Assembly (NCBI RefSeq): GCF_016127575.1
Contig: NZ_CP066020.1
Coordinates: 330,001-362,000, forward strand
Source: Cupriavidus necator
Lineage (GTDB): Bacteria; Pseudomonadota; Gammaproteobacteria; Burkholderiales; Burkholderiaceae
DNA length: 32,000 bases
Reading direction: 5' to 3'
Shown here: one piece after another, positions 2,615 to 23,386 of the stretch
Numbering within the stretch: the stretch's first letter is position 1
Layout: the number at the start of each line of letters is the position of its first letter
Translations under genes and position numbers: made by a program
Notes under the pieces: generated by a model
What the model saw: the letters and a program-made list of their open reading frames with translations, nothing else
What the model was told of the DNA's origin: nothing
Databases searched by the model: none

Positions 2615-3324
2615 GTGCGCACGCTCGAGGACCCTACGTCAACGCGCTTTGCCGACCACGACACGCTGCGATGTGCGCGTGGCGAAATAGCCGATGAGGT
2701 CGAACCGGCCGCCCGGCGTGTGTTCGGCGCTCAGGGCAGCGCATGGCTCGCGCCCATTTGGCGAACCCTGGCGCGCGCGGCAGAACACCTGCCGTTGTGC
2801 CGGGACGAGGACGAGACCCATGCTGCGCCGCTGTGGCTCAAGGCCGGAGACTGGGTCGCGACCCAGGACGCTGTCGCGCGCATCGAATCGCGGCGCCGGA
2901 TTCCTCCTGCGCTCAGCTGGATGGCCGAGGCACAATATCACCAGCAGGGACTGGAAGCCGTCTGGCCGCTGTTGTCCGAACTCGCATGGCTGTCGCCGCG
3001 CCGCCTTGATGCGCTGATCCGGCGCTTGGTGGATCCTTTGCTGAGGACGTTGCGCAAGACCTTCGACGCCCGTTTCGATGGCGACGGGACGATCGAGGAT
3101 CTGATTTGGTTCCCGGCGGGGTGTTGATCGAAAAGCCGGGCCTAGCCAGCCTGCTGGGCAGGACGCAGCCGTCAACTCACCGCCCGCCAGAGCGGGTCAT
3201 GCGCCTGGTGCTGGAACTGCTGAACCTGGAGCGAAAGGGCCGCCACCACGACCTGGTCGAACGGTGCAAGGCGCTCCAGAGTCTGCATCCGTCGCTCTTC
3301 GCCAAGTACATGAGCAGCCGGTGA
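2615..3324 (+). pseudogene. Hypothetical protein gene interrupted by a -1 frameshift in a G-run
   Basis: ORFs 2615..3127 and 3106..3324 both have coding-like GC3 bias and overlap at GCGGGGTG (G-run 3117-3120). Adding one G gives a continuous ...DLIWFPAGVLIEKPGLASLL...KYMSSR. The first ORF begins with GTG directly after a stop, so the 5' end may also be truncated. Confidence 0.45.
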
Positions 3325-3340
3325 TCTGGACAAGGCGGCT

Positions 3341-3583
3341 TCAAAGCACCGCTTCGAGGCCCTTGCGCTCGATGAGGTTGAGCAGCTTCACAGAGGGGCC
3401 ACTCGGCTTCTTGTCGCCAACCTCCCATTTGCGAACGGTTGACAGGCTGGTGTTCAACACCGAAGCGAGCACCGCTTGGCTCAAGTGCAGATGCTCACGC
3501 AACGCCCGGCGTTCGCGGGATCGGCGAACTGCCCAGGTCGGCAAGGTGTTGCTGGCCGGCGGCAAGCAGTACCGCCGTGTCAT
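3341..3583 (-). CDS. XRE-family HTH protein (antitoxin-like); N-terminus uncertain or possibly truncated
   Basis: The C-terminal LREHLHLSQAVLASVLNTSLSTVRKWEVGDKKPSGPSVKLLNLIERKG resembles the HTH of HigA/YiaG-type regulators. The upstream part of track ORF 3341..3706 looks non-native. The start at 3583 is a guess. Confidence 0.5.
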   Translation of the reverse strand: MTRRYCLPPASNTLPTWAVRRSRERRALREHLHLSQAVLASVLNTSLSTVRKWEVGDKKPSGPSVKLLNLIERKGLEAVL

Positions 3584-3965
3584 GCGCGCCGCGCTCGCTC
3601 GCCAGTACAACACCACCCTGCCTGCCGTACAGGAAACGACCGGCGGCATCGGCATGCAACGCTCGCAACTCGGCGCATTTCTCGACGGTCTCGCGCCGAT
3701 GTTCAACGAACCGATGGGCCATCACCCCAATGGCACGCCGCTCTACCGGCGCTACGGCTGGATCGAAGCCGGTGCCGTGACCCACCTGATCTACCGGGCG
3801 GCCCCTTACCTGCCTACGCTCCAGGCCCGCGTGCTTGCTTTGTTCCAAGGCCCATCCGGACCGACCGCCGATGTTGAGGTCGAGGAACGCTTCCGCGGCG
3901 GTACCAGAATTGGCTCTCGCTGGGTCGGCGTGGCTGATCTCCACCCGCTGCAGGAGGCCGCATGA
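3582..3965 (+). CDS. Hypothetical protein
   Basis: Strong GC3 bias from about 3582 onward (MRAALARQYNTT...LHPLQEAA). The stop overlaps the next ATG (ATGA at 3962-3965). The start is uncertain because the frame is open from 3264. Confidence 0.5.
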   Translation: MRAALARQYNTTLPAVQETTGGIGMQRSQLGAFLDGLAPMFNEPMGHHPNGTPLYRRYGWIEAGAVTHLIYRAAPYLPTLQARVLALFQGPSGPTADVEVEERFRGGTRIGSRWVGVADLHPLQEAA

Positions 3966-4348
3966 GCGAATTCGACAAGGCGTTGCACCAGGAAGCGAAG
4001 GCACTCAGCGTGAACCTCGATGGCACGCCCGAGGCGCTCCTGACCGTGGCGCACGCCGGCTACAAGGCTTGGGCCAAGGAAGGCAACCTGCATTTCCCAG
4101 ACGAAACGCGCTACGCCCTGCTCCATGAGATCCTGCGTTACTGCGCCGACGAGTGTTTGCTTGAGTGCTATCCGTCGCAGGAGCGCCGCCTGCGCGAGAT
4201 TGCCGAGATGCTAGATCAGCGCTATCCGCGCTATGCCTGTACGCGAGCGCGTCTGCGTGCGCGCCGCAATCGCTACGGCAGGATCTGCGACGATGCACGC
4301 CGTGCCCCCCCTGCGTCTGCCAGCAATGATGTCACGTCTCAAAGTTGA
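3962..4348 (+). CDS. Hypothetical protein; the 3' end reads into the inverted repeat of the downstream element
   Basis: Translationally coupled to the upstream ORF, with coding-like codon usage. The last codons (NDVTSQS*) lie within the 17-bp repeat at 4331-4347. Confidence 0.6.
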   Translation: MSEFDKALHQEAKALSVNLDGTPEALLTVAHAGYKAWAKEGNLHFPDETRYALLHEILRYCADECLLECYPSQERRLREIAEMLDQRYPRYACTRARLRARRNRYGRICDDARRAPPASASNDVTSQS

Positions 4349-4940
4349 TGGGAGACCGATCGCAAACAAATCAATGGGTTACAAGGCACCGCCTCAAGTT
4401 AACTGAGCCAAATTCTCACAGAAACTGGTTAAAAGACGCAGCTTGTCTCACAGTAAGTGGGTACACGGAGACGACGGAGTGGAAAGAACCGCGTCGCTCC
4501 ACCTCCCTATCACATGGCCATGTGAAATCGCATACGCGCATGAGCGCGGAGAAAGTGTCCCGGCGAACGGTCGCCACGTGCTTATCCAGTGCGGCTGCGC
4601 GCGCGAGGGCGGCGCCAGAAGAAAATCGCTCGATACGCGAGACAGTCCTCCACGGTCAGCGATGACACCGCACGCCGACGCTCACACACGGCCCAGAGCA
4701 GCATGCGTCCCGCCTCCTTGCCCGGCTTCCCCTGTGGTCTTCAGTGCGCGATCTCACGAGTCCGCACAGGCAGATTCACCGACGACGCTCCAGTCGAAAC
4801 GCTTGTAACCTCACCGACATAGTAGATGCAGACTCCAGCGCGGCGCCCCCCTTCTGACATCATCAGCGCCTTTTACCCATTAACTTTGAGAATCCAACCC
4901 ACTAACTGTGAGACAAAACTCAACAACTTTGAGACGTGAC
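4331..4940. mobile_element. 610-bp module bounded by perfect 17-bp inverted repeats with nested subterminal repeats (MITE-like, or a recombinase/transposase binding-site array)
   Basis: GTCACGTCTCAAAGTTG (4331-4347) is the exact reverse complement of 4924-4940. An inner pair, 4444-4462 and 4897-4915, matches 18/19. Additional CTCAAAGTT / CTCACAG type repeats sit in opposite orientation at the two ends. The interior has visibly lower GC and no convincing ORF. Confidence 0.45.
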
Positions 4941-4942
4941 AG

Positions 4943-5041
4943 CGGATCGCGGGCATGCTCGATGCCGCCTACCCCCGCTACGCCTGTACCCGCGCAAAGC
5001 TCGCCGCGCGCCGCAACCATTATGGGCGGCCGCGATTCTGA
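4943..5041 (+). pseudogene. Diverged orphan copy of the 3' end of the 3962..4348 gene
   Basis: It translates to RIAGMLDAAYPRYACTRAKLAARRNHYGRPRF*, compared with REIAEMLDQRYPRYACTRARLRARRNRYGR in the intact gene (nt 4196-4284). A hairpin CCGCCGC-ATA-GCGGCGG follows it. Confidence 0.5.
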
Positions 5042-5122
5042 ACTCTCGCCTGCAAGCCATATCCGCCGCATAGCGGCGGCAGGGGTGTGGGATGGGTTCA
5101 AATTCAGTATATAACAGCGGGT

Positions 5123-6055
5123 ATGGCAAAAATGGACTCCCTCTGGCTCAGCAATCCCAGCCTGGCCTACCGTGACTGGCAGGCGCGTGAGGCGGCTGGC
5201 TCTGATCGCCGCCCTTTCTCCGCGCGCTCGATCGTCCAGCACCAGGCGATGTTCGAGAACTTCCGACGACACTTGCTGGCGAGGAGCGCGACCGTTGCCT
5301 CATTTGGCACCGCCGATATTGAGTCGTTTTTGCAGACGCCCGACGCTAGGTCATACTCTCCGGCCACACGCATGCGGTACGTGAAGCTGCTGGACCGCCT
5401 GTGCCGGCATCTGGTCTTCGCCGGTGTGCGCCTGGACAACCCAGCCGCCCTGATGCTTTCCGCCGAGCGCTGGCCAGACCAAGAGCCCACACCCCAGTTC
5501 CTTGACGAGGCCGAGGACGGGCGGCTGCAAGCCTATCTTCAATCCCCTGCCGACGATCTGTCCGGCTTGCGTAGCCGGGCGATCGTCGCGATGTTTCTCG
5601 CAACGGGGATTACCGCGGCGGAAGCGCGAGCCGCGCGTTTGGGGGACCTAGTGCCGGATACAAACCCGCCCTATCTCTTCGTGACGGGACATGGGGCGCG
5701 GGACGCGCGCACTGTTCACGTGGCCGAATTCGCTGTATCGCTACTTCAGGCCTGGCATGCCCGCCGCTCAACGCTTCCCGTCCACGGCGACCTGCTTTTT
5801 ACCCTTACCCCGGATGGCCGCCCCATCACCGACATGAGCTTTGGCCGGATCGTGGCCGCCGCGCTGGAAGCGATAGAATTCTCCGGCGTCGAGCCAAGTC
5901 CCCGCACGCTGCGCAATACTTTTTGCCGGCGTCAGCTGCTCGCTGGCTGTACGCACGACGACGTGACCCGGATCTTAGGACTTGCCAGCAATCGCACTTG
6001 CGACCGCATTGCCGCTACCATTTCGGCTGCCCGACGGCGAAAAATCCTGAAATGA
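5123..6055 (+). CDS. Tyrosine-recombinase (XerC/XerD/phage-integrase)-like protein with degenerate catalytic residues
   Basis: Overall XerD-like layout: ...FLATGITAAEA..., ...GHGARDARTVHV..., ...SPRTLRNTFCRRQLL..., ...ILGLASNRTCDRIA.... Start taken at MAKMDS (5123). The track ORF begins at a GTG at 5087. Confidence 0.7.
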   Translation: MAKMDSLWLSNPSLAYRDWQAREAAGSDRRPFSARSIVQHQAMFENFRRHLLARSATVASFGTADIESFLQTPDARSYSPATRMRYVKLLDRLCRHLVFAGVRLDNPAALMLSAERWPDQEPTPQFLDEAEDGRLQAYLQSPADDLSGLRSRAIVAMFLATGITAAEARAARLGDLVPDTNPPYLFVTGHGARDARTVHVAEFAVSLLQAWHARRSTLPVHGDLLFTLTPDGRPITDMSFGRIVAAALEAIEFSGVEPSPRTLRNTFCRRQLLAGCTHDDVTRILGLASNRTCDRIAATISAARRRKILK

Positions 6056-6165
6056 TCGGGGTTTCAGCGCATCTCACTATTGCACTCGCGCTTGCATTTG
6101 CTATTCTTCGCGGATGCGATGTACGCGATATCCCGCGCGCACGCATTTCTTAATCAGGTACGACT

Positions 6166-6609
6166 ATGGCCACGAAAGCATCCGCGAAGACTGCAACGAA
6201 GACCGCCGCAAAGAAGGCTGCCCCCGCAAAGAAGGCTGCCCCGGCGAAGAAAGCCGCTCCGGCTAAGAAGGCTGCCGCAGCCTCCCCGGTTGCCAAGCCG
6301 CTGAAGGACACCTTCAACAAGTCGAGCCTCCTCGCCCATCTGGTCGCCCAGACCGAACTGGACAAGAAGACTGTCCAAACCGTTCTGACTCACCTGGAAA
6401 ACACCATGGTGAGCGCGATCCACAAGAAAGGCGCAGGCGAGTTCACCTTCCCCGGCCTGTTCAAGGTCTCGGCCATCCAGGTTCCGGCCACGAAAAAGCG
6501 CTTCGGCAAGAATCCGTTCACGGGCCAAGAGCAGTGGTTCGCCGCCAAGCCGGCCAGCGTGAAGGTGAAGGTTCGCGCGATGAAGAAGCTGAAGGACGCC
6601 GCGATGTAA
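6166..6609 (+). CDS. HU/IHF-family DNA-binding protein with an N-terminal Lys/Ala-rich histone-H1-like tail
   Basis: The N-terminal KKAAPAKKAAPAKKAAPAKKAAAA repeats are followed by an HU fold signature: ...GEFTFPGLFKVSAIQVPATKKRFGKNPFTGQEQWFAAKPASVKVKVRAMKKLKDA. Confidence 0.85.
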   Translation: MATKASAKTATKTAAKKAAPAKKAAPAKKAAPAKKAAAASPVAKPLKDTFNKSSLLAHLVAQTELDKKTVQTVLTHLENTMVSAIHKKGAGEFTFPGLFKVSAIQVPATKKRFGKNPFTGQEQWFAAKPASVKVKVRAMKKLKDAAM

Positions 6610-6638
6610 TCGCTACGGTTCCCGCGAACCAAAGGAAA

Positions 6639-6675
6639 AGCCCCGAGATTTTGCTGATCTCGGGGCTTTTTTTTC
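6639..6675. terminator. Bidirectional rho-independent terminator between convergent genes
   Basis: AGCCCCGAGAT (6639-6649) pairs with ATCTCGGGGCT (6657-6667). It is followed by T8 on the plus strand and preceded by an A-rich run that serves the minus strand. Confidence 0.7.
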
Positions 6676-6740
6676 GTAGGCTCTCTGAGAAGAGAGAGTG
6701 CTGAGGCGTAGCAAATTACCACCACGCCAACTTGGAAGTG

Positions 6741-6938
6741 CTACAGATCGGCGAGATAGGCGATTGCGCATCCGCCGTCCGTGCCGGCCAGGCGTTGGCC
6801 CTCACGACAGACGGAGAAATCAACTACCTTGCGTTCGATCTCGCTGGCCAACTCGCGCAATTGCTGCGCGGCTTCGGCGGGACCGGCCGTCCCCTGAAAC
6901 GTTGGGCCACCAATATCAATGTCGACAATGAGGTGCAT
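6741..6938 (-). CDS. Small hypothetical protein (65 aa)
   Basis: ATG at 6938 with GAGG 7 nt upstream. MHLIVDIDIGGPTFQGTAGPAEAAQQLRELASEIERKVV.... The opposite-strand ORF 6732..7043 looks less protein-like. Confidence 0.45.
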   Translation of the reverse strand: MHLIVDIDIGGPTFQGTAGPAEAAQQLRELASEIERKVVDFSVCREGQRLAGTDGGCAIAYLADL

Positions 6939-6947
6939 GATCTGACC

Positions 6948-7064
6948 TCACGCGGTAATCCGGCCGGCAGCAATTTCTCGTTGGATCTGTTGCATGCCAA
7001 GCTCGATGGAAGCAGCCACAAGCCGCTCCTGTTCCTCACTTAGAATATGGTTGTTCGAAGTCAT
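6948..7064 (-). CDS. Possible 38-aa micro-ORF upstream of the 65-aa ORF
   Basis: MTSNNHILSEEQERLVAASIELGMQQIQREIAAGRITA*. It ends 10 nt before the next ATG and is below the track length cutoff. No clear SD. Confidence 0.25.
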   Translation of the reverse strand: MTSNNHILSEEQERLVAASIELGMQQIQREIAAGRITA

Positions 7065-7075
7065 AGTTGGAGCCA

Positions 7076-7112
7076 GAAAAGAAAAGCCCGCTCCCCTTTC
7101 GGAGATGCGGGC
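7076..7112 (-). terminator. Rho-independent terminator after the SbcC-like gene
   Basis: The minus strand reads GCCCG(cat)CTCC-GAAAG-GGAGCGGGC followed by TTTTCTTTTC, 21 nt after the stop at 7133. Confidence 0.55.
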
Positions 7113-7132
7113 GTGTTGGATGATGGGCAGCC

Positions 7133-9457
7133 TTACTGCGCCGCCAAGGCAAGTACATCGATGACACCGTCAGCCTCGTCGACGAGATCCGGCGTTTGCG
7201 AGATGAAGAACTCCCGTTCGTAGCCACCGATACGCAGCACTTCGCGCTTCATTTTCATGAAGGCGCGCTTGCGCTCAGGATCCAAGGGGCCATCGGCCTC
7301 ATCGGTAAAGAGGGTCTGGAACGGTTGCTGCGCGTCCTGCGCCCGGTAAAGGGCGATTCCACGCGTCAGACACTCGTTGATCCATACCTTCTGTCCCCCT
7401 GACATCACGGAGAAATCCTTCGTGCTGTCGTTGTCGGCGTCGATCACGTCGATGGCAAAGCCTTCCCGCTTCTCGCCGTTGGCCAGCTCGGTCTGCGTCT
7501 GAATCGCGATGGTGAATCGCGGTCCGTAGCAGGCAAGCAACAGGTCATTGACGATCTGCGTGATGGCCGGGCCCGCGTCATCGATAGACAACGCAATGAC
7601 GCCATCATTGCCCAGGCCCTTTGCCAACAGCTTCCACTGCGCGATCTGGTCGGACAGCGCTTGCGTCTTGGCCTCTGCCGCCGGCAAACCTGCAAGCTCG
7701 GCATCCAGGCGCTCGCGCTCGGCCACCAGCGTGCCCTCCTGCCGAATCAGTGCTTCGATCCGGCCGGCGATGGCAGCGCCACCCTCCCGGCTGGCAGCGA
7801 TCTGGCGGTCCATCTGTCCCAGCATGCCGGTCACATCCTCTGTGGCCAGTGCTGCCAGTTCCCTGCGCACCGCTTCAAGCTGGGCTTGCACGTCCGCAGC
7901 ATCCCGCTTGTGGCGGTCTACGCGCGCCGCTTCTTCCTCAGTCAGTGCCGTCAGATCACGATCAGCCTGCACCAGCCCTTCGCGCGCGGCGTCGAGCATT
8001 GGCTTCCTGGCCGCCAGCGCCGTGAGACGCTGCAGCGACTGCTGATCACGCTCCAGGTCGGCCCGCAGTGCCGCGAAGGCGCTCCGCGCCTGGGCGCGCG
8101 CCGCAAGCGAGTCCTGCATCGACTGCGCCTGTGCCAGCTTCTTGCGATAGCTGTCGCGAAGCGCCTCGACCGTCACTGCCTGCTCACTGAGACCGGCTTT
8201 GGCATTGCGCGCCTGTGCCAACAACGGGCAGGCGGCGTGCATCGGGTCGTCCCAGCAAGGAACCGTCTCGATGACGTCGGCCTGCAGCTTCAGCGACTTG
8301 ACCAATTGCGCCGCCGAGGCACCGCGTTGTTCCAGGCCCTTGAGCTCGGAACTGAGCGCCGCGTGCTCGACCTGCACGGCATCGAGCTTTTCAACAGTCG
8401 CCTGCTGGCTGGCCAGCTCCGCCTGCTTCCGGCCGATGGCCAGTTGCAAGGCATCCCGCTCGCCGGCGGCCGATTCGATGGCCGAGGCCTCCGCCAGCAC
8501 TGCGCGGTGGCTTGCCGCATTTCGGTCCAGATCGCGTCGGCGCACCGCAGCACGGCCGGCAGCCGCCTGCTCGTCGCTGCCCAGCAATACCGCACGCTGC
8601 TCCAACTCACCCTTGCGCTGGTTCAATTCCCGCAACCGCGCTTCGGTACCGGCATTGGCCTCCTGCTTCGCAGCCAGCGTCGCGCGTTCCTGCATCAGCT
8701 TGGCGCCCGTGGCCGTCTCCACGTCCCGGGCCTCGCGCTGGGCATCCAGGCTTTCGCCTACCTGCCAGATCTCCTTGGCAACCACCGCGGCGCGGTCGCG
8801 CTTTCCGGAGAGAGTCAATACGTCGCGCTGCAGGGTATCCAGCGAGCGGGTGAGCAGTTTGGCAACCTCGCCCGCTTTCGCCGACAAGTCGCGCAGGTGC
8901 TCGATCCCGAGCAGTTCGGCAAGCAGCTTCTTGATCTCGCCGGCCTGGTAACTGGCGAGCGGTCGGCGGTTCTGGGCAGAAAACACGCTGGTGAAGAACG
9001 CCTCGGGCGACCCGAGCACGGCCTCCAGACACCGGTTGTAGGTGTCCGCCTTACCGTCCGACAGCGTCCCGTCAGCCAACTGCAGCGGCTTCCAGTCACC
9101 TCCCGCGTCCTTCTCGAACAGGTAGTACTCGGCCTTGCGGCTCTTGCCAGGATTGCGGAACGCGAACGCTGAGCGATACGTCTTGCCGCCGTGCTCCCAC
9201 TCCAGATCCTTCTCCGCGCGCGGGGCGCAGAGATGGTCCCAGTACGAGAACGCGTCGACTGACATCTTGCTTGCGTGGCTCGGCATGATGGGAAACGGGT
9301 GCAGGTTGTCCATGATCGTGGTCTTGCCAGCCCCGTTGGGGCCGACCAGGGCGATCAGGCCACCCGGCAGCGTCGTCAGGTCCACCGTGACGCTATCGCG
9401 CTTCATGCCGTCGCGGATCCCGTAGAATCCCGTGAGCATCAGTTTCAGTGGACGCAT
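7133..9457 (-). CDS. SbcC/Rad50-like SMC-family ATPase (774 aa)
   Basis: Walker A GPNGAGKTT, Q-loop region FSAQN, a long Ala/Glu/Arg/Leu-rich coiled coil, ABC signature MSGGQK, and Walker B/D-loop LFTDEADGPLD. Confidence 0.85.
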   Translation of the reverse strand: MRPLKLMLTGFYGIRDGMKRDSVTVDLTTLPGGLIALVGPNGAGKTTIMDNLHPFPIMPSHASKMSVDAFSYWDHLCAPRAEKDLEWEHGGKTYRSAFAFRNPGKSRKAEYYLFEKDAGGDWKPLQLADGTLSDGKADTYNRCLEAVLGSPEAFFTSVFSAQNRRPLASYQAGEIKKLLAELLGIEHLRDLSAKAGEVAKLLTRSLDTLQRDVLTLSGKRDRAAVVAKEIWQVGESLDAQREARDVETATGAKLMQERATLAAKQEANAGTEARLRELNQRKGELEQRAVLLGSDEQAAAGRAAVRRRDLDRNAASHRAVLAEASAIESAAGERDALQLAIGRKQAELASQQATVEKLDAVQVEHAALSSELKGLEQRGASAAQLVKSLKLQADVIETVPCWDDPMHAACPLLAQARNAKAGLSEQAVTVEALRDSYRKKLAQAQSMQDSLAARAQARSAFAALRADLERDQQSLQRLTALAARKPMLDAAREGLVQADRDLTALTEEEAARVDRHKRDAADVQAQLEAVRRELAALATEDVTGMLGQMDRQIAASREGGAAIAGRIEALIRQEGTLVAERERLDAELAGLPAAEAKTQALSDQIAQWKLLAKGLGNDGVIALSIDDAGPAITQIVNDLLLACYGPRFTIAIQTQTELANGEKREGFAIDVIDADNDSTKDFSVMSGGQKVWINECLTRGIALYRAQDAQQPFQTLFTDEADGPLDPERKRAFMKMKREVLRIGGYEREFFISQTPDLVDEADGVIDVLALAAQ

Positions 9458-9960
9458 TCGGACACCTCCGTACCATTGAAGGAGTGAAGGTATTCCGGCG
9501 GCATTTCCATGACGTTGTCGTCAAACACTGGCAGCTCGGCAACGACAGGAGCATCGCGTTCCGGCTTGCCAGCGATTGCGCGCTCCAGGGAGCGACGCGC
9601 TGCGGCAAACTCGCCGGCGGCCATCTTGATCACGGCCGGCCAATCCTCAAGGCCAGTGATGGCCCTGAGTTCGAGTTGGCTCCACTGGGAAGCCAAGCCG
9701 TTGGACGCCGACCAGATCAGGTCCTGCAGCTCCTTGGAAGGTGCCACGGCAAGGAAGGTATTTCGGCCGACTTCACCAAGGGCCAAAACCAGCATGTGAC
9801 CGCGCTTGGCGATCACCGTACCGCGGCCCTTGCCGAACGGCTCGTACAGCATGCACTGCGTAAATTCATGGGCGTCGGCCAGGCGCTTGGCCATCACCGA
9901 GCGGTCCATGCACGCTTCTTCAACGAAGAGCCAGTCGGGACCGGCGTGGTACAAGATCAT
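9445..9960 (-). CDS. Hypothetical protein (171 aa) between the SbcD-like and SbcC-like genes
   Basis: AGGAG lies 8 nt upstream of the ATG at 9960. The gene overlaps the SbcC-like start by 13 nt. No motif recognised. Confidence 0.65.
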   Translation of the reverse strand: MILYHAGPDWLFVEEACMDRSVMAKRLADAHEFTQCMLYEPFGKGRGTVIAKRGHMLVLALGEVGRNTFLAVAPSKELQDLIWSASNGLASQWSQLELRAITGLEDWPAVIKMAAGEFAAARRSLERAIAGKPERDAPVVAELPVFDDNVMEMPPEYLHSFNGTEVSECVH

Positions 9961-10041
9961 TTTTGCACTCCTGGAAAAGGACGGAGTGCGCCCCAGACGG
10001 GAAGCACCCGTCTGGGTAGAAAGAAAGAAAATGGATACTGC

Positions 10042-10065
10042 GGGGTCGATGCGTCAAGGACGCGG
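10042..10065 (-). promoter_or_regulatory. Copy a of the conserved island motif GGGTCGATGCGTC-N4-GACGCGG (written as on the plus strand)
   Basis: GGGGTCGATGCGTCAAGGACGCGG, 82 nt upstream of the minus-strand start at 9960. Confidence 0.5.
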
Positions 10066-10137
10066 AGAAAACCGGGTTTCGGCAGCCTCTAGGGCTGTCG
10101 GAACATGGCTCACATGTTCTAAGGTGTGGGCGTATCG

Positions 10138-11598
10138 CTACGCAAACAGATCATCGGTCAGCCAGTCCATCGCTGGGGCAGTTAGCGATGACGACGGCAA
10201 CGCCGGCTTGGCGTCCGTTTCCTTCGAGCCTGGCGGCACCGGAGGCGCACCGACATCGTCTTCCAGCTCCATGCCAACCAGCGCCGTTAAGACATGTGGC
10301 AACACAGGCTCGGGTGGGGATGCATCGGATGCTGCCGCTACCGGATCAGCCACAAGATCCGCCAGCACGCGATCGGCAATCGACTGCGCATCGTTCGTCT
10401 CAAGCATCGAGAGGCAGTCCATGAGCGGATTGGCCTCAACACCCGTCAACTCACACCAGCGTCCCAGCTTCTCGGGCAATGTTGCGGCCCGGCTGATGCC
10501 TTCGGCCCGGCTACGAACTGCCGGTAGCACCCGGGCTTCGAGCTTCACCTCGGCACTGGCGCCAAAGAGAGCCGTGATGGCCTCCCGGTCCACAAGCTGG
10601 CGGTGCTCCTCGTTGACCGTCCAACGGATGCGCACGAACTTGTCGGCAGCATCGGTGGCCATCTCGGTCAGCTGCGCCATATCCGGCGGGCCGTCGAAGT
10701 CAATGCAGACGGACTGGCGCGCCGGTGTCGCCACCAGCGAGGCCTCGGTCCGGCGGGGAGCAATCTGCCAGCGCAGGTAGCCCTTTTCCCCAATCTCACC
10801 ATAGTGGAAGCGCCCGATGGAGCCCGGATAGGCCACCACCCTGCCCTCCTGTGCCCATTGCTGGGCGCGGTGAATGTGCCCGAGCATGAAGGCATCGCAA
10901 TCGGCATCGAACAGCGCGCCAATGGTGAATTCGTAGTCGAATCCGGCCATCGGCACCCCGTGCTCGGTCTGGCACCCGTTGACCGTACCGTGGGACACGC
11001 CGATCGTGCGCGCGCCCCTCGATCGCCATTGGTGATTGACGGTACCCGCAGCCCTCAGATAGTCGGCCAGGTGATCGCCGACTGCCGTGGCAGCACTTGC
11101 AACGCCAGCCGCGGCCGCCAGCACAGCCTTATTGACCGTCGGCACACAGGTGAACACCACTTCCGGTATGCCGTGCTGTGCTAGCAGCACGTCGATCTCC
11201 GCGGTGTCGAAGACGGGCCCCACCGACGGCACAAAGTGCCCTGCGCATAGTGCAACCTGATGGATGCGATCCGCGACATAGACGGGATACTGTGCGCCGA
11301 TGAGGCGAAACAGGTCCAGCGTGCCCGGGGGCTCGTGGCTATATGTGCCTTGCAGCATCAAAACGGGCATGCGTGCTGTCAGCTGGTGAACTCGGCGTGC
11401 CAGCGCCGAGAGCGCCGGTGTGTGCGCGTCCAGGCGGTGGTCGGTGGAATCCCCAGACACCACGCCAACTTGGCACCCGCCGGCAATCGCGTCATCGACC
11501 GCAAAGCCGAAGCAGCGGTCGGCCTCTGCCAGGTGGCCAGGGGAATAGTGCAGATCCGAGAAGTGCGCGACAAGCAGGCTATCGCCTTCATTGTGCAT
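10138..11598 (-). CDS. SbcD/Mre11-like calcineurin-type metallophosphoesterase with a long C-terminal extension
   Basis: LVAHFSDLHYSP (DxH), VVSGDSTDH (GD), ...GHIH... phosphoesterase motifs. Start taken at MHNEGD (11598) with GGAGG 8 nt upstream. The track ORF start at 11673 was rejected. Confidence 0.8.
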   Translation of the reverse strand: MHNEGDSLLVAHFSDLHYSPGHLAEADRCFGFAVDDAIAGGCQVGVVSGDSTDHRLDAHTPALSALARRVHQLTARMPVLMLQGTYSHEPPGTLDLFRLIGAQYPVYVADRIHQVALCAGHFVPSVGPVFDTAEIDVLLAQHGIPEVVFTCVPTVNKAVLAAAAGVASAATAVGDHLADYLRAAGTVNHQWRSRGARTIGVSHGTVNGCQTEHGVPMAGFDYEFTIGALFDADCDAFMLGHIHRAQQWAQEGRVVAYPGSIGRFHYGEIGEKGYLRWQIAPRRTEASLVATPARQSVCIDFDGPPDMAQLTEMATDAADKFVRIRWTVNEEHRQLVDREAITALFGASAEVKLEARVLPAVRSRAEGISRAATLPEKLGRWCELTGVEANPLMDCLSMLETNDAQSIADRVLADLVADPVAAASDASPPEPVLPHVLTALVGMELEDDVGAPPVPPGSKETDAKPALPSSSLTAPAMDWLTDDLFA

Positions 11599-11694
11599 GG
11601 TATGACCTCCAAAGAAATGTGCCGGCGTGCGGCAGGAAAAGAGAAAGGGAAGCCATATGGCTTCCCCTGACATGCCGGCACGAGGCTGGCGAAA

Positions 11695-12984
11695 CTACGG
11701 TGCGACTTCGGCAGCGATCGCGGCTATCTGTTCGCGGAACGCAAGCGGATTGGTCAGCGCTGTGCGCATTTCGCCAAGCAGTTGGCGAACGTCCTGGTCA
11801 CGCTTGGTCCAGCCGCGCCCAAATGTGGCAGATGCGTAGATGCGGAACTGTGCCCGGCCTTCCTGATTGGCCAGGCCCAGACGCACCATCAGATCCTCGA
11901 ACTGGCTTTCCAGGTCGTCGCCGTCGACGGGCACTTGATGCGCTGCAGTGGCATCAACAACCTGCGACAGCTTCGTCGCTTCATCGCCCTGCAGAGGCGT
12001 CTGCTCCGTTGGCTGGACCTCGTCTTCCAACGCAGCAACTGCCTGCGTCGCCATCTCGAGTGCCGGCGCACGACGGTCCGACCCGTCCAGCAGGGCAGCG
12101 ATATCGATCTCCGCGTCCAACGTGATGAGCCATTGCATCTGGCGCACCGCCCTTCCGCTATCATCGATGCGGCTGATCTCCACCTCCTGCTTGGACATCC
12201 AGAACTTGACGCCCACCAGCCTGCCGCGCGCCAACGCCACGGTCTGCATGGCGGCGTGAGCCTTCTGCAGGACGTAAATCGAGGTTGTCGGCATTTCGAT
12301 GAGGCCAAGGCCGGAAATGGCCGGCAGCGCGAAGTAGAAACTGGCCGACAGGTTGCAATTCCCATCCTGGTATTGCGGGCACATGTGTGGGTCGCAGATA
12401 CCGTCAGGGATATCGTCGTCCTGTCGCAGGATGATGGTGCGGCCGCCCCAGGTTCGCTTCGCGCGATTGGCGCGAGCATCGCGCACTGGGGGCGCGTACA
12501 TCTTGCAGTAACGCCTGCCGTCCGGCCCGTACTCCGAGAAGAACTGGCGACCGCTCTGCGTCCATGCAACGAGCTGATTGGGCATATTGCTCAACCAGTC
12601 GTCGAACGCGAAGATGACCGGGAATCGCCAGAGACGGAAGCCGTTGCCGTCGCCACGATCCTCACCGTAGCGCTGCACGATCTCTTCAGCCACTGCGGGG
12701 TTGGCAAAGTCCGAGCCGCGGCAGGTGAACCACGGCACGTTCTTCGGAACAAGAGGCGTTTTAATTCCGGTTGCCCGGGATATCTCCAACCCCATACGCT
12801 CGAAGCTCTGACCCTGGGCCAACATCCGGTCATGGATCTTGACGGCTTCAGGCTTCTCACGTGCAGCCTTGGTCAGAACCTTGATGCCGGGCCGGATCTT
12901 GCCAATGATCGGTGGCCGCGTGGGCCGCTCCTCTAGCAGGCTCCGGCGTCCGCCAGGTTCGCTGTAGGTGATGGGTGCATGCAT
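11695..12984 (-). CDS. Hypothetical protein (429 aa), first gene of the SbcCD-like module
   Basis: Long ORF with GC3 bias, ending 97 nt upstream of the SbcD-like start. It contains a Cys cluster ICDPHMCPQYQDGNC and an acidic C-terminal third. No family recognised. Confidence 0.75.
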   Translation of the reverse strand: MHAPITYSEPGGRRSLLEERPTRPPIIGKIRPGIKVLTKAAREKPEAVKIHDRMLAQGQSFERMGLEISRATGIKTPLVPKNVPWFTCRGSDFANPAVAEEIVQRYGEDRGDGNGFRLWRFPVIFAFDDWLSNMPNQLVAWTQSGRQFFSEYGPDGRRYCKMYAPPVRDARANRAKRTWGGRTIILRQDDDIPDGICDPHMCPQYQDGNCNLSASFYFALPAISGLGLIEMPTTSIYVLQKAHAAMQTVALARGRLVGVKFWMSKQEVEISRIDDSGRAVRQMQWLITLDAEIDIAALLDGSDRRAPALEMATQAVAALEDEVQPTEQTPLQGDEATKLSQVVDATAAHQVPVDGDDLESQFEDLMVRLGLANQEGRAQFRIYASATFGRGWTKRDQDVRQLLGEMRTALTNPLAFREQIAAIAAEVAP

Positions 12985-13150: not shown

Positions 13151-13190
13151 AAACGAAAAAAGCCCGCTCCGGATTGCGCCGGCAGCGAGC
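13151..13190 (-). terminator. Rho-independent terminator or attenuator inside the long leader upstream of the 429-aa gene
   Basis: The minus strand reads GCTCGCTGCCGG-CGCAAT-CCGGAGCGGGC followed by TTTTTT. The stem has one bulge and one G-U pair. Confidence 0.5.
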
Positions 13191-13609
13191 TTTGCTATTC
13201 AGAACCTGCAATGCCACGCCCCTTCCGGGGGCGTGGCACTCAGGGAGCGGCGCACAATTGCGCGCTGCTCGATGCTGAGGACGTAAAGTCGTCCTCGTGC
13301 AGCATGGTCACGCTGCACAGCAACCCATTTCGCGAACCCACAGGTTCGGCCGCAGGTTCACGGATCGGCTCGACGGCTGCCGTTCTGCCCGGGAGGGGCC
13401 TTTGAGAGAGAGCTCCACATGATCCCGGGCTCGAACGGTGTCAGTCGCGTGCGCTCACAAGGAGGCACCGCGAGAACGCGTATTACGAGCTGATGAGGGA
13501 AGTGTTCGGCGAAAACACTTAGCACAAGAAATATCCACACTGGTAGCCAACCAGTCGGCGCGTGCGCATATGCACGACTTGAAGCAGAAGATGGACTCGC
13601 CAGGAGTCA

Positions 13610-13631
13610 GGGTCGATGCGTCAGTGACGCG
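13610..13631 (-). promoter_or_regulatory. Copy b of the conserved island motif
   Basis: GGGTCGATGCGTCAGTGACGCG. It lies in the 0.8-kb divergent intergenic region, in the same orientation as all other copies. Confidence 0.45.
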
Positions 13632-13773
13632 AGGTGTGAATGCATTGTGGCACAGAAAATCCGTCGCAAAGAATGCGAAAGCTCGCCAATTTGCCATAGC
13701 TTTCAAAGTCATCGAGTGCCCGGTTGTGTCCGACAATTTCACCCTGAGAGAGCGCTTCCGAGAACATGAAAAA

Positions 13774-14340
13774 ATGGCCGAACAGGATCCACCCAAGGTA
13801 TCAGCCAGTGGGCTCAGACCCATTGAGCGACACAACAGCGAAGAACGGCTAAGCCGCCTCACGCCGACGACGGCTTCAGCTACCCTCCACGCCTACTGCT
13901 CAAAGTTCGCGCGCGACTTCCTGGATGCACATTTCTACTACGCTTCATCCAAGTTCGTCGTGGCGCGTGGCGGCAAGGTCAAGGCGCTGGATGAAGCGTT
14001 TCGCGACGCGGAGGATTGGTATGGCAGTGCACTGAGCTGGCTTTCGAAGACCGATCAGGTCGAGATTCCCCTCTTCTACGAGGAGAAAGAGGTCAAGGTC
14101 TCCCATTCCTTCGCCGGCCGGCTGCTCAGACTGCTGATGCAGTTCGACCGGATTTTTGTTGAGACGCTCTACAGCCAGGAATGCGGGTCCATCTCTGCGG
14201 ACCAACGCACCACGACAATCCAGATCGCCGCAAAGCGGATCACCGCGATTCACCAACTCTGCATCCCGGACACAGACAAGTTCGGACCCGACGGCACACT
14301 GATTTCATCTCACCGGAGCTCCCCCGATGGACATGCGTGA
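13774..14340 (+). CDS. Hypothetical protein (188 aa); start uncertain
   Basis: Frame open from 13438, but the upstream part contains motif copy b and is AT-richer. MAEQDPPKVS... (13774) was chosen. No domain recognised with confidence. Confidence 0.5.
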   Translation: MAEQDPPKVSASGLRPIERHNSEERLSRLTPTTASATLHAYCSKFARDFLDAHFYYASSKFVVARGGKVKALDEAFRDAEDWYGSALSWLSKTDQVEIPLFYEEKEVKVSHSFAGRLLRLLMQFDRIFVETLYSQECGSISADQRTTTIQIAAKRITAIHQLCIPDTDKFGPDGTLISSHRSSPDGHA

Positions 14341-15015: not shown

Positions 15016-15426
15016 ATGGAAAATCCTCCCATCTTCAGCGTGCTGCGTGCCGGCATGAGCATCCACGGCGACATTGTTTCGGACCATGGCTTCACTTGCC
15101 TGGCGCTGGTCACCGGCAACATTGGCGCTTCCCGGGGCCTATTGCATATCGCGGCAGGCGGTGTAGTGCACGGCAACGTCGATGGCGAGCACGTCATTGT
15201 GGACGGTGTGGTCGAAGGCGATGTCGTCGGTCGGACCTCTTTGCTGATCAACGGCCGAGTGAAGGGCCGGATCATCTACGCGGGCACTATCCGGCTGGGA
15301 CCGAATGCCGCCCTGGACGGCACCATCACACGCATTCAGGCGGTCGGCTATGCACCATCCCCACAAAAGGAGGGGGTGGCCGTCACTGACTCTGCTACCG
15401 AAGCGGTGGAGCCTGCGAGCAGTTGA
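15016..15426 (+). CDS. Bactofilin-family (polymer-forming, beta-helical) protein
   Basis: Repetitive G-x-[IV]-x-G-x-[IV] windings: SIHGDIVSDHG...VTGNIGASRGLLHIAAGGVVHGNVDGEHVIVDGVVEGDVVGRTSLLINGRVKGRIIY. Confidence 0.75.
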   Translation: MENPPIFSVLRAGMSIHGDIVSDHGFTCLALVTGNIGASRGLLHIAAGGVVHGNVDGEHVIVDGVVEGDVVGRTSLLINGRVKGRIIYAGTIRLGPNAALDGTITRIQAVGYAPSPQKEGVAVTDSATEAVEPASS

Positions 15427-20870: not shown

Positions 20871-20940
20871 TGAAAGCGCTTGCCGAAGCCTGAAAGCTTC
20901 GGCAAGCCCTCTCGGGCTTGCGATTGGGATGGGCCTGAGG

Positions 20941-21345
20941 TCAGGCGAGATCGAAAATCTTGCTGATGGCTCGGACGGTGTCCCAAGCTTGGCGCTCGGA
21001 CAGCACCTTGCCAACAAGCAACTTCTGGGCAGTGGTGACCAGGTTGGGGGCCTCGCCGGCGTAGCCGATCCGGTCGACAAAGACCGCCCAGCCTTCCGAC
21101 CAACCGCGATGCACGGAGACGGTGAGTCGTTCACGCGCACCCAACTGTGGCCACTGGCGTGACGACTTCGGGCCGTACATGGCCTCATTGTCGTCATCCA
21201 TGAAATTGGCAGCATTGAGCCATTCCGGCTCCAGGCTTGCACTGCGCAGTTGACGACGGACGTCATCGGCGACTTCGAAGATGTACCTGCCCTTCGTTTC
21301 GATCGGATTGATGGTCAGGGGAGATGTTTCTGCAGTGTCGAACAT
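20941..21345 (-). CDS. Hypothetical protein (134 aa)
   Basis: Clean ORF with GC3 bias and an acidic patch FMDDDNEAMY. It lies 86 nt downstream of the lipoprotein gene. Confidence 0.65.
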   Translation of the reverse strand: MFDTAETSPLTINPIETKGRYIFEVADDVRRQLRSASLEPEWLNAANFMDDDNEAMYGPKSSRQWPQLGARERLTVSVHRGWSEGWAVFVDRIGYAGEAPNLVTTAQKLLVGKVLSERQAWDTVRAISKIFDLA

Positions 21346-21431
21346 GGCTGGTTGCAGTTCGCGACAGAGCCCCCACGCGGGAGGGTCCGCGCGGGGAGAA
21401 TGAAGGGAATGGGACTCCGAACCGGAGGCCG

Positions 21432-21905
21432 TTAGTGAGTGAGGCGATAGCCGCCGGCACCCGAGACGAGAAACAGCTGCTCGCCAGAGACGAACTGCTG
21501 ATCCGCATCCTGGGTCACGACGACCTGGCGGCCACTGTCCGTGCGGACAATGACTTCCACGCCATCGCGGCGGCTCAACTGGTTCGCCGCCGTCTGCGCG
21601 ATGACCGCCGAGACGGTGCCCGACAGGGCGCCGGCCAGGTAACGGCCATTGCCGTCGCCGATGATGCGCGCACCAAGCACCGCACCAACGACGGCACCGA
21701 GAACACCGGGTACGCCGGTGTGGGCCGACATAATGCCGTCCCTGTCGACAATCGTGACGGGGCGAACCCTGACGACTGTGACAGCTTCAGCGTTACTTGT
21801 GCGCAGCGCTTCCGTCGCCCGGTAGGTATTGGGCGAAGTCGGCTGAGCAGCGCAGCCAGTGAAAACGGCGCAGCAAAGGAAAAGCAGGAAGAATCGCTTG
21901 ATCAT
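21432..21905 (-). CDS. Lipoprotein with a glycine-zipper (SlyB / 17-kDa-antigen-like) domain
   Basis: MIKRFFLLFLCCAVFTGC contains a lipobox. GVPGVLGAVVGAVLGARIIGDGNGRYLAGALSG is a glycine zipper. GAGG lies 7 nt upstream of ATG 21905. Confidence 0.75.
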   Translation of the reverse strand: MIKRFFLLFLCCAVFTGCAAQPTSPNTYRATEALRTSNAEAVTVVRVRPVTIVDRDGIMSAHTGVPGVLGAVVGAVLGARIIGDGNGRYLAGALSGTVSAVIAQTAANQLSRRDGVEVIVRTDSGRQVVVTQDADQQFVSGEQLFLVSGAGGYRLTH

Positions 21906-21995
21906 GATGGCCTCAACGAAAATGGGGCCAACATGCCCACGGGCAGGAAGGCCCGTAGGTGGGGAAAAAAGAGATGTCCGGCTATACAACCGGAA

Positions 21996-22018
21996 GTGTC
22001 GATGCGTCGGAGACGCGG
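21996..22018 (-). promoter_or_regulatory. Copy e of the conserved island motif
   Basis: GTGTCGATGCGTCGGAGACGCGG, preceded by CCGGCTATACAACCGG. It lies 91 nt upstream of the start at 21905. Confidence 0.5.
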
Positions 22019-22110
22019 TAGGTGCACCTATGTTAGCAGTGTCGAGCGCGTTTGTGGAGTCGTTCAATCCGGCGCAGCCTACTTACCGAAGCGCCGAATG
22101 CGGCTTCCGG

Positions 22111-22437
22111 TCAGCCGCATTCGGCGAGACGCCAACACCAACTGTCGCCGATCGCATAAAGAATCAGCAATGCCTCGCCAACGCGATACGGCCGTCCCTG
22201 GATGGTTACCGCACCGTGCTCTTCGGAAAGCAGGAATGACGAATCACTCGCTACAAACTCAAGGGTTGGCATCGATTTGCATAGTTGCTGCGCTGATGCC
22301 AGCGTAAACAATGGCACCACGAAGCCGTTCCAACTGACACCGTTCCAGAAGGCATCGATTGCGAAGTCGTCGGGTAGCCAGTCGCCGGCTACCCTAACGG
22401 GTCGGTATTTAGAGGCAAAGGCATGAGGATCTTGCAT
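22111..22437 (-). CDS. Hypothetical protein (108 aa)
   Basis: TGGAG lies upstream of ATG 22437. The ORF is coding-like. Its stop lies in the loop of a 12-bp hairpin. Confidence 0.6.
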   Translation of the reverse strand: MQDPHAFASKYRPVRVAGDWLPDDFAIDAFWNGVSWNGFVVPLFTLASAQQLCKSMPTLEFVASDSSFLLSEEHGAVTIQGRPYRVGEALLILYAIGDSWCWRLAECG

Positions 22438-22488
22438 AGTGTGTACTCCAATTCTTCCGGAAGGCAGCTACCTGGGCTGTGTTCCGGC

Positions 22489-22508
22489 GGGTCGATGATA
22501 GGTGCGGG
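22489..22508 (-). promoter_or_regulatory. Degenerate copy of the island motif (left part only)
   Basis: GGGTCGATGATAGGTGCGGG keeps GGGTCGATG and the terminal CGGG but lacks the GCGTC/GACGC dyad. It lies 52 nt upstream of the start at 22437. Confidence 0.25.
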
Positions 22509-22542
22509 CCGAACGCCACGTGGGGCGCCGCTGCAATGAATC

Positions 22543-22578
22543 CAAAAAAAATGCCATCCCCAAAACTTCGGGGACGGC
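22543..22578 (-). terminator. Rho-independent terminator after the ThiF-like gene
   Basis: The minus strand reads GCCGTCCCC-GAAGTTTT-GGGGATGGC (one G-U pair) followed by ATTTTTTTT. Confidence 0.6.
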
Positions 22579-22582
22579 GGGT

Positions 22583-23386
22583 TCAAGCGGCATGGCGAGA
22601 GGCGCGGCTCGCGCGCTGCTTCGGTTCGGGCAGGTGATACCCGAATCGCGCCCAGGCCTGCGGGTCAACCGGCAGTGGATTCGTACGCCCCACTGCCAAA
22701 TTCACGAACGCGCCGCAGTACTTCAGCGTCCCCGTGCGAAACAGCGTCCAAAGCAAGTTGTAGGCCTGCACCGCGATCGCCTGGTTGATCACCAGCGACT
22801 GCTTCTGCAGCGCCTCTGCCATCGAACACGACGGCGCAGTGTCGGCCTTGTCCCCTTTCGGGTCCAGCAGCTCGGGGAAAAGGTCGCCGACATGGGGCAA
22901 GCGCTGCGCCGCCTTGCCGCGCACTTGGCCGAGAATCACCTGACCACTGTCCGACTCGTTGCCGCAGTCAAGATAGTAGCCACCTGTGCCACGCTTCATC
23001 GCTCCAAGGATCGCCTTGCGGGCAGCCCGCGTGTCAACACAGCCAATTGCCATGTCGCAGACGAAGCGATCGCCGCTCGCAACCCGACGCGTGTGCGCTT
23101 CCCAGCGCGTCCCCATCAGGTTGTTCAGTCGGTTCACGATCAGCGTGGCCTTGTGCTGGCCCACATCGACGGGATAGAAGCCCTGACGACCGATATTGGT
23201 CTCGCTGACGGTATCGTCATCGTAGACCGTGCAATCGATGCCGCCCGGGTGGCCCAGCTCCAGCATGGCGTGATGCAGCCGCGCCAGATTGGGTAGCAAG
23301 GCGCTGCCGGTGCCGCCGGCACCTACCACTACCACCTTCCAGGCACGCGTCGTCATGTTCGCGGGAATGCGATGCTCGAAGGTCAT
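22583..23386 (-). CDS. PRTRC system ThiF-family (E1-like adenylyltransferase) protein
   Basis: VVVVGAGGTGS (GxGxxG), YDDDTVSETNIGRQ, CVDTRAARK. The ATG at 23386 overlaps the stop of the JAB gene (ATGA). Confidence 0.9.
   Translation of the reverse strand: MTFEHRIPANMTTRAWKVVVVGAGGTGSALLPNLARLHHAMLELGHPGGIDCTVYDDDTVSETNIGRQGFYPVDVGQHKATLIVNRLNNLMGTRWEAHTRRVASGDRFVCDMAIGCVDTRAARKAILGAMKRGTGGYYLDCGNESDSGQVILGQVRGKAAQRLPHVGDLFPELLDPKGDKADTAPSCSMAEALQKQSLVINQAIAVQAYNLLWTLFRTGTLKYCGAFVNLAVGRTNPLPVDPQAWARFGYHLPEPKQRASRASRHAA

Follow-up and report, generated by a model that had tools for sequence, protein, structure and literature searches.

Escherichia coli SbcCD, like the gp46/gp47 pair of phage T4 and the D12/D13 pair of phage T5, combines a metallophosphoesterase carrying Mre11 motifs with an ATPase of the ATP-binding cassette/structural maintenance of chromosomes (ABC/SMC) type, in which a long stretch, presumed to be a coiled coil and bearing a cysteine motif near its midpoint, sets the two halves of the head apart. 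A pair built to the same plan is encoded in a stretch of 32,000 nucleotides (nt) of Cupriavidus necator DNA (the window throughout this text), the sequence of which is identical to that of megaplasmid pHG1 of C. necator H16 (NC_005241.1; window position = NC_005241.1 position - 298,856). It belongs to a four-gene module that also specifies a Gp3-like protein of 429 amino acids (aa) and an orphan protein of 171 aa (Table 1). On plasmids and at other betaproteobacterial loci, a Gp3-like protein is an obligate genomic partner of the nuclease-ATPase pair, a feature not shared by SbcCD. Unlike SbcCD, the pHG1 pair also has GT[FY]SHE rather than GNHD at motif III of the nuclease, C-x8-C rather than CxxC at the hook, Q or H at the H-loop and a short ATPase of 774 aa, and in the four-gene lineage its genes are split by the 171-aa gene, which has a motif of its own upstream.

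The Gp3-like protein resembles gp3 of phage phiC31, a recombination directionality factor (RDF) that we take to be its only characterised relative, in its membership of Pfam family PF18897, in a fold match to structure 9teh and in a cysteine segment located in the corresponding region. Unlike gp3, it is 185 residues longer, is linked to a nuclease-ATPase pair, has no serine integrase nearby and has been found on plasmids and at chromosomal loci but in neither phage records nor viral contigs. The module also includes an element that was known beforehand: the sbcD RNA motif (Rfam RF01757), described in 2010 by Weinberg et al. (PMC2864571) and situated ahead of the same syntenic operon, for the most part on plasmids of Burkholderiales.

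The nuclease-ATPase pair and its Gp3-like partner

The four minus-strand open reading frames (ORFs) that the original prediction had placed between positions 7133 and 12984 were all found there. Since their protein products are conserved across dozens of plasmids and genomes, they are genes and not chance ORFs; RefSeq labels them, in gene order, hypothetical protein, DNA repair exonuclease, hypothetical protein and nuclease SbcCD subunit C. The core genes are indeed separated by the 171-aa ORF, which overlaps the start of the ATPase gene by 13 nt, and the broader proposal, that of a non-canonical module of SbcCD-like character in which a mobile element also carries accessory genes, is supported.

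Both RefSeq and alignments of homologues place the start of the nuclease at 11598, giving a protein of 486 aa. A profile of 13 nuclease homologues matches Mre11 of Thermotoga maritima, Mre11 of Pyrococcus furiosus and SbcD of E. coli (best E 5e-7), and all six Mre11 phosphoesterase motifs can be traced in the protein. Motifs I, II, IV, V and VI (SDLHY, SGDSTDH, SHGTV, LGHIH and YPGS) are invariant or nearly so among 13-14 homologues, and motif III takes the form of a conserved variant, QGT[FY]SH[ED], which aligns with GN-HD of the T. maritima enzyme and replaces GNHD. The nuclease belongs to the Mre11/SbcD group as a divergent member. It scores below the curated SbcD cut-off (TIGR00619, 19.7 vs 77.65 bits) and also below that of Pfam Metallophos_2 (21.4 vs 27 bits). 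A specific relation to Bxb1 gp47, another large RDF that is also a metallophosphoesterase, was considered and rejected (hhalign probability 0.2%).

The ATPase matches the phage SbcC-like family phrog_77 (E 1.8e-28), which, with phrog_100, is the best phage family for the core pair, and its match to the curated sbcC model TIGR00618 (E 2.1e-8, 32.6 bits) misses the cut-off of 478.5. Its conserved head motifs are a Walker A sequence GPNGAGKTT (residue 39), a Q-loop SAQNRR (160), a signature MSGGQ (685) and a combined Walker B/D-loop LFTDEADGPLD (716); the H-loop position is occupied by Q in the pHG1 protein and by H in some homologues. The two halves of the head are separated by approximately 400 residues, presumed to form a long coiled coil. 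No CxxC zinc hook is present in the ATPase; in its place, residues 399-413 near the midpoint carry a conserved motif, VPC-x8-C-[PEK]-LL (VPC-x8-C-P-LL in the pHG1 protein, with Cys401 and Cys410), and the VPC-x8-C motif is retained in distant ATPase homologues of 34-37% identity. Homology of the core pair to SbcCD is supported at the superfamily level only. Because the motifs are kept but the curated cut-offs are missed, we treat the pair as SbcCD-like in its working and not as a standard member of the family; the enzymatic identity of the two proteins, read from these signatures, is well supported.

The 429-aa protein was originally held to belong to no recognisable family. In fact it matches PF18897 (Gp3-like, recombination directionality factor-like) with an E value of 1.5e-33 and 116.7 bits against a cut-off of 23.6, over profile positions 1-180 of 191, and the same domain is carried by 240 of 240 homologues among the matches listed. 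Since phiC31 gp3 itself scores 64.4 bits, gp3 is not the top scorer of its own family. An AlphaFold2 model of the 429-aa protein, built with 57 homologues, had a mean predicted local distance difference test score (pLDDT) of 66, residues 135-212 being of low confidence. The best and sole significant Foldseek match of this model in the PDB was 9teh_I, a phiC31 integrase-RDF fusion in an excisive synapse (E 3.6e-5, probability 1.00, target TM-score 0.50), so that the gp3 fold is assigned on a model of mean pLDDT 66. A direct sequence relation of the family to gp3 was not detected by hhalign or by a PDB profile search, and the 429-aa protein is tied to gp3 through the Pfam hidden Markov model and the fold comparison only.

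The N-terminal part of the protein is a Gp3-like domain (residues ~25-290), which an acidic linker (294-357) joins to a helical domain (358-427) at the C-terminus; gp3, at 244 aa, is too short to contain the latter two. What had been described as an acidic tail is therefore an acidic linker of low confidence (14 D/E vs 3 K/R) that leads into confidently modelled helices. The cysteine cluster noted earlier, CDPHMCPQYQDGNC, was found at residues 197-210, and its C197, C202 and C210 are invariant among the eight most diverse Gp3-like homologues, with C160 present in seven of them. A cysteine segment of gp3, HHC..PCGC, lies in the sequence region that corresponds to C160/C197/C202/C210. In structural work on phiC31, gp3 acts as a three-pronged clamp on the tip of the integrase zinc domain, with a coiled-coil hinge between two hairpins (bioRxiv 10.1101/2025.05.02.651858).

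The distribution of the module was examined in one genome per species, among which 264 stretches contained a Gp3-like relative; the best 80 of the 264 were analysed. The scan was run with a narrower Gp3-like alignment, the most diverse alignment being too divergent for pattern scanning, and for this reason returned Burkholderiaceae loci only. All four genes were found in the same order in each of the 67 Burkholderiaceae loci with at least 6.3 kb of downstream DNA, and 65-83 plasmid records contain the four proteins, nearly all of them from Cupriavidus, Ralstonia, Burkholderia, Paraburkholderia, Caballeronia and Robbsia. In 36 of the best 80 loci, mainly of Caballeronia and Paraburkholderia, the Gp3-like and nuclease genes have a gene for a NADAR-domain protein (PF08719, E 6e-46) inserted between them, for example at positions 11460-11942 of locus L044.

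Beyond this lineage, a Piscinibacter plasmid carries genes for DinG, Gp3-like protein, nuclease and ATPase in that order, without the 171-aa gene, and the trio of Gp3-like protein, nuclease and ATPase is also encoded at a Herbaspirillum chromosomal locus, at a Massilia-related locus and on two metagenome contigs, with 37-51% identity. Two of these four betaproteobacterial loci outside the plasmid lineage are chromosomal and belong to Oxalobacteraceae; an AlpA gene is found nearby in three of the four, an integrase or integrase-like gene in three and a DUF1173 gene in two. In Burkholderia contaminans, the Gp3-like gene lies beside the nuclease gene, and a PLD-family gene and several small genes precede that of the ATPase. 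Because the trio-only loci lack the 171-aa gene, the conserved unit is the trio, and the 171-aa gene is a later addition. The expectation that the accessory genes would be conserved together with the pair was thus correct for the Gp3-like gene, which is retained in 67 of 67 loci and in the distant trios; for the 171-aa gene it holds inside the Burkholderiaceae megaplasmid lineage and nowhere else. More widely, the Gp3-like family accompanies DNA replication and repair genes. On the phiC31 genome, gp3 and an exonuclease gene are two genes apart, with the phage genes for primase and polymerase lying downstream of gp3.

The 171-aa protein is a genuine orphan confined to one lineage, with no match in Pfam, NCBIfam, PADLOC or PHROGs and only 28 relatives found when its profile was searched exhaustively against 1.84 billion representative proteins. 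Its AlphaFold2 model (pLDDT 82) has a confident alpha/beta domain at residues 1-130, followed by a variable acidic tail, and has no significant fold neighbour in the PDB or BFVD. It is the fastest evolving of the four proteins, with a median identity of 38% vs 53-58% for the others. Its identity as a CesT/type III secretion system chaperone, the name suggested in one NCBI record, was rejected: there was no Pfam match at E<=1 and no PDB or BFVD fold match, and a weak match to STY4665 (E 0.78) was taken as noise.

The nuclease differs between the two kinds of locus in its C-terminal tail. This tail was predicted to extend for about 190 aa and to end in an acidic segment. Conservation reaches approximately residue 407, and deposited E. 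coli SbcD chains contain 407 residues, so the true extension is about 80 residues and not 190. It is variable and acidic, closing with a conserved WLxDDLFA peptide (DWLTDDLFA in the pHG1 copy), which is missing from the nucleases of trio-only loci (431-436 aa). The long tail with this peptide and the sbcD RNA, both seen in the four-gene lineage only, arose together with the 171-aa gene, which suggests that these features are functionally linked. Because a single lineage is concerned, this link is suggested and not proven.

Regulatory elements and punctuation of the module

The long structured leader ascribed to the module by the original prediction is structured (z = -5.8 to -8), but it is not new, being the sbcD RNA. 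According to Weinberg et al., sbcD is not the gene immediately downstream of this RNA (PMC2864571). The downstream gene here is the Gp3-like gene, before which the RNA was found in five of five four-gene loci tested; it was absent from the trio-only and distant loci. Given the terminator-like hairpin and T run behind it, the sbcD RNA may represent a separate small transcript or an attenuator. What our analysis adds is that the Gp3-like gene follows immediately, that a sequence motif stands before the RNA and a terminator-like hairpin after it, and that its occurrence is limited to the four-gene lineage; an orphan RNA motif thereby gains a precise genetic context.

The motif copy attributed to the module, GTCGATGCGTC-N3-GACGCG, is real, six exact copies being present in the window vs 0.04 expected. 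It contains the inverted repeat GCGTC-N3-GACGC, and all six copies have one orientation. Every copy is upstream of a minus-strand backbone gene or gene group, namely the 171-aa/ATPase genes, the sbcD RNA/Gp3-like gene, the DUF932 gene, two hypothetical/glycine-zipper genes and the ParB gene of the PRTRC cassette. From copy 1, the distance downstream is ~630 bp to the Gp3-like gene and ~255 bp to the sbcD RNA, and the positions of both copies in the module are conserved across genera, in most Burkholderiaceae loci. The six-copy motif has the look of an operator or promoter belonging to a regulon of the plasmid backbone, and the FlhC-family regulator of pHG1 is a candidate for the factor that binds it. 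Copy 1 is included in a RefSeq hypothetical coding sequence at 13579-14340 (+), which diverges from the module and has no Pfam match, and the start or reality of which is doubtful.

Read in the direction of transcription, the module consists of motif, sbcD RNA, hairpin, Gp3-like gene, hairpin, nuclease gene, motif, 171-aa gene overlapping the ATPase gene, and terminator. In 11 of 11 related loci examined, the site between the Gp3-like gene and the nuclease gene likewise has a hairpin, different in sequence, with a T-rich tract behind it. The strong terminator at the distal end is shared with the convergent HU-like gene. The four genes had been assigned to a single operon; the conserved terminator-like hairpin after the first gene and the second motif copy before the third gene contradict this, and because it is punctuated internally in this way, the module is not a plain operon.

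Table 1. Genes, RNA element, motif copies and hairpins of the pHG1 module (window coordinates)
Feature	Position	Strand	Remarks
Gp3-like gene	11695..12984	-	429 aa
Nuclease gene	10138..11598	-	486 aa; ORF runs to 11673 (511 aa)
171-aa gene	9445..9960	-	orphan protein
ATPase gene	7133..9457	-	774 aa
sbcD RNA (RF01757)	13202..13356	-	five hairpins; 161.9 bits vs gathering score 40; model positions 1-155 of 155
Terminator-like hairpin and T run	13151..13193	-	AAAGCTCGCTGCCGG..CCGGAGCGGGC TTTTTTCGTTT; directly after the sbcD RNA; read from the sequence and present in the folds
Backbone motif, all copies	10045, 13612, 17407, 20849, 21998, 28551		20 nt each
Motif copy 1	13612..13631	-	CGCGTC-N3-GACGCATCGAC in gene direction
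Motif copy 2	10045..10064	-	in the 177-bp gap from nuclease stop to 171-aa start
Hairpin and T-rich tract	11635..11668	-	Gp3-like stop to nuclease start; from terminator scan; terminator or attenuator
Strong hairpin terminator	6636..6670	-	14-bp stem; ~460 bp downstream of ATPase stop

Proposed function and its alternatives

We tentatively propose, at a little under even probability, that the module encodes an end- and hairpin-processing machine of the Mre11-Rad50 type that belongs to the mobile element, is equipped with a Gp3-like cofactor and serves the element's own DNA. The nuclease and ATPase would form a heterotetramer like that of SbcCD, with C-x8-C as a variant zinc hook, and the Gp3-like protein would act as a dedicated cofactor, be it an adaptor or a regulator; in phiC31, the gp3 clamp holds the integrase coiled coil at its base. 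In Burkholderiaceae, the 171-aa protein would be a regulator or adaptor acquired later, and may bind the WLxDDLFA tail of the nuclease, which is seen only alongside the 171-aa gene. Such a complex would repair or process the DNA ends and secondary structures of the element during replication, transfer and establishment. The shared motif would couple its expression to the backbone regulon, and the sbcD RNA with its terminator, followed by the hairpin after the Gp3-like gene, would grade that expression.

An analogy for repair by an element on its own behalf is offered by the Bet and Exo proteins of IncC plasmids and SXT/R391 elements. These are likewise encoded by repair genes in the conserved part of a conjugative element that has an FlhC-family regulator, and the IncC/SXT recombination genes are reported to repair double-strand breaks made by CRISPR-Cas during conjugation (PMC7498323). 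In contrast to the Mre11-Rad50-type proteins of pHG1, Bet and Exo are of the lambda Red type, and the proteins are unrelated. As for regulation, FlhC-family control of the pHG1 module is something that we only infer.

Several considerations weigh against the proposal that the module processes the DNA of its own element. We infer the complex, its activity and its substrate alike, and both core proteins fall far below the curated SbcD and SbcC cut-offs. Because motif III is without its Asn, the hook is not CxxC and the H-loop residue of the pHG1 protein is Gln, the activity could differ from that of SbcCD. The Gp3-like protein is not exclusively a cofactor of SbcCD-like pairs, since it is also found without or distant from one: on Polaromonas plasmid pPNAP01 its gene lies 10 kb from the pair, amid dnaN, ssb, toprim and helicase genes; in Manganitrophus it occurs without the pair, with toprim and UvrD-like/helicase genes; and on a Janthinobacterium plasmid no nuclease or ATPase gene stands beside it. 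Conservation inside one plasmid family is partly a matter of common descent, and the association of the 171-aa protein with the nuclease tail comes from a single lineage and thus from one evolutionary event. Finally, since mobile elements also carry defence systems stably, a location in the plasmid backbone is compatible with defence.

A role in defence or competition, in which the ATPase would sense foreign ends, single-stranded DNA (ssDNA) hairpins or replication intermediates, the nuclease would destroy them and the accessory proteins would serve as sensor, adaptor or immunity factor, seems to us doubtful. The architecture of the module, in which an SMC-like ATPase and a nuclease are accompanied by small accessory genes and carried by a mobile element, does resemble Lamassu-type systems (LmuABC/DdmABC), and weak matches to LmuB and mad3 (2e-8 and 4e-11) were obtained; however, these PADLOC matches cover only the ATPase P-loop (mad3, residues 30-53) or its coiled coil (LmuB), the other three proteins have no PADLOC match, partner genes are lacking, and no full gene set of a known system in PADLOC-DB v2 (Lamassu, MADS, Gabija, PARIS, Septu and others) was matched. 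Unlike Lamassu, moreover, the pHG1 module has a separate Mre11-type phosphoesterase and no detected equivalent of LmuA or LmuC, and it is a fixed component of the backbone, present throughout the plasmid family (67/67), in which it also departs from variable defence islands. The fast evolution of the 171-aa protein would fit defence, as would the report that transposon insertions in host sbcD are among the mutations that restore conjugation in resistant strains (2026 preprint 10.64898/2026.07.06.735840). Hachiman genes do occur near the trio in one locus, but as a variable insertion beside it and no part of it. The sharing of the motif with partition and transfer-associated genes argues in the other direction, as does the lack of relatives in phage records or viral contigs: a search of 50,697 phage records gave no match to the module at the level of nucleotides or proteins, and IMG/VR gave none either, so that a phage origin was rejected as well.

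Two further explanations were weighed. It is rather improbable that the substrate of the module during transfer or replication is plasmid DNA in single-stranded or structured form, with the sbcD element as a DNA initiation signal, hairpin substrate or decoy and the complex trimming or resolving structures for complementary-strand synthesis or replication restart. Weinberg et al. did speculate that the sbcD element might be a DNA mimic or an ssDNA structure (PMC2864571), and the region folds equally well as DNA on either strand (z = -6.7 and -8.0); in addition, distant versions of the module adjoin dnaN, ssb, toprim primase and helicase genes, and ssb and primase genes belong to the same backbone block of pHG1. 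Yet the terminator-like hairpin is directional and the element lies downstream of the motif, as an RNA would, and because the trio exists without the sbcD element, the latter is not needed for the core function. Highly improbable, in our estimation, is that the Gp3-like protein is a plain RDF for a serine integrase elsewhere on the element and that its adjacency to SbcCD-like genes is meaningless. The RDF activity of gp3, the one characterised relative, and the name recombination directionality factor that NCBI now gives to many homologues would agree with this, and a large serine recombinase gene does lie ~3 kb upstream in one locus (L089). But tblastn with phiC31 Int and a Massilia serine recombinase, which of pHG1 itself covered the window, found no serine integrase there and none in the 10 kb around the gene at the 80 Burkholderiaceae loci, nor was one found in the more distant loci L088, L090 and L094. 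The Gp3-like gene stays next to that of the nuclease at identities from 95% to as low as 27%, on plasmids and at other loci, the linker and C-terminal domain are extra to gp3, and the pHG1 protein outscores gp3 against the profile of their common family. Overall, where the original prediction left the choice among defence, recombination and other roles open, the evidence leans to a function for the element itself, without settling that choice.

If the Gp3-like protein is a subunit or regulator of the pair, as we favour in proposing a processor of the element's own DNA, it would exemplify a bacterial protein dedicated to partnering a machine of the Mre11-Rad50 type, and a directionality factor of serine integrases, one in wide use in synthetic biology, would gain a cellular origin. 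To our knowledge, eukaryotic Mre11-Rad50 has the partners Nbs1 and CtIP, and E. coli SbcCD is not known to require a dedicated one. By analogy with the gp3 clamp, Gp3-like proteins could even be ancestral cofactors of the Mre11-Rad50-type machines of mobile elements that clamp the base or apex of an SbcC-like coiled coil, the phage RDF having been exapted from them; the trio would then be a three-component system for end processing, not recognised before, that plasmids and integrated elements possess. We consider this unlikely. The sbcD RNA, the PF18897 family and the generic SbcC/SbcD annotations were already known. In a literature search that covered subscription journals thinly, we found no description of the trio as a unit or of its spread beyond plasmids, of the variant motif III and variant hook, or of the package of 171-aa protein, tail peptide and RNA and the internal punctuation of the operon.

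Plasmid context and neighbouring genes

Plasmids pMOL28, pHG1 and pRALTA share a common backbone (PMC2864759). The genes around the module on pHG1 include those for an HU-like protein, a tyrosine recombinase, a DUF932 protein, a PRTRC cassette with ParB and a large helicase-related protein, followed by genes for a DUF1173 protein, a methyltransferase, a Lar-family restriction-alleviation protein, a single-stranded DNA-binding protein (ssb) and a primase-like protein; an FlhC-family regulator, pil genes, a type IV secretion system and a TraI-domain gene are also nearby, and PLSDB assigns relaxase types MOBH and MOBP to the plasmid. The region thus looks like the part of the plasmid that serves its maintenance, transfer and establishment, and not like a variable island. 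Fixed in the backbone of these megaplasmids, which carry genes for metal resistance, hydrogen-based autotrophy and symbiosis, the module may affect their survival during transfer and replication.

At pHG1 positions 351909-354250 (20910-23251 of locus L095), outside the window, the FlhC-family gene is preceded by a gene for a hypothetical protein of 388 aa. The regulator resembles the FlhDC-like transfer activators of IncC and SXT elements, and a similar gene is present on Polaromonas pPNAP01 (locus L087, 14733-15275). The same Polaromonas plasmid has an IscB gene, annotated as an RNA-guided endonuclease, directly after traD (L087, 20316-21710).

The HU-family protein convergent with the module (6166-6609, +) has an N-terminal tail rich in Ala, Lys and Pro, specified by 18-nt tandem repeats at 6203-6274 (AAKKAAP units), and an HU-like gene adjoins the trio in metagenome locus L094 as well. 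In L094, a Hachiman-type pair, HamA and a DEAD/ResIII helicase, occupies positions 3323-7586 between the DUF1173 gene and the HU and Gp3-like genes; because the DUF1173 gene of locus L090 runs straight into the Gp3-like gene, the Hachiman pair looks inserted. On the other side of the pHG1 module, the divergent gene group beside it contains a bactofilin-domain gene at 15016-15426 (+), identified by a match to PF04519 (2e-13).

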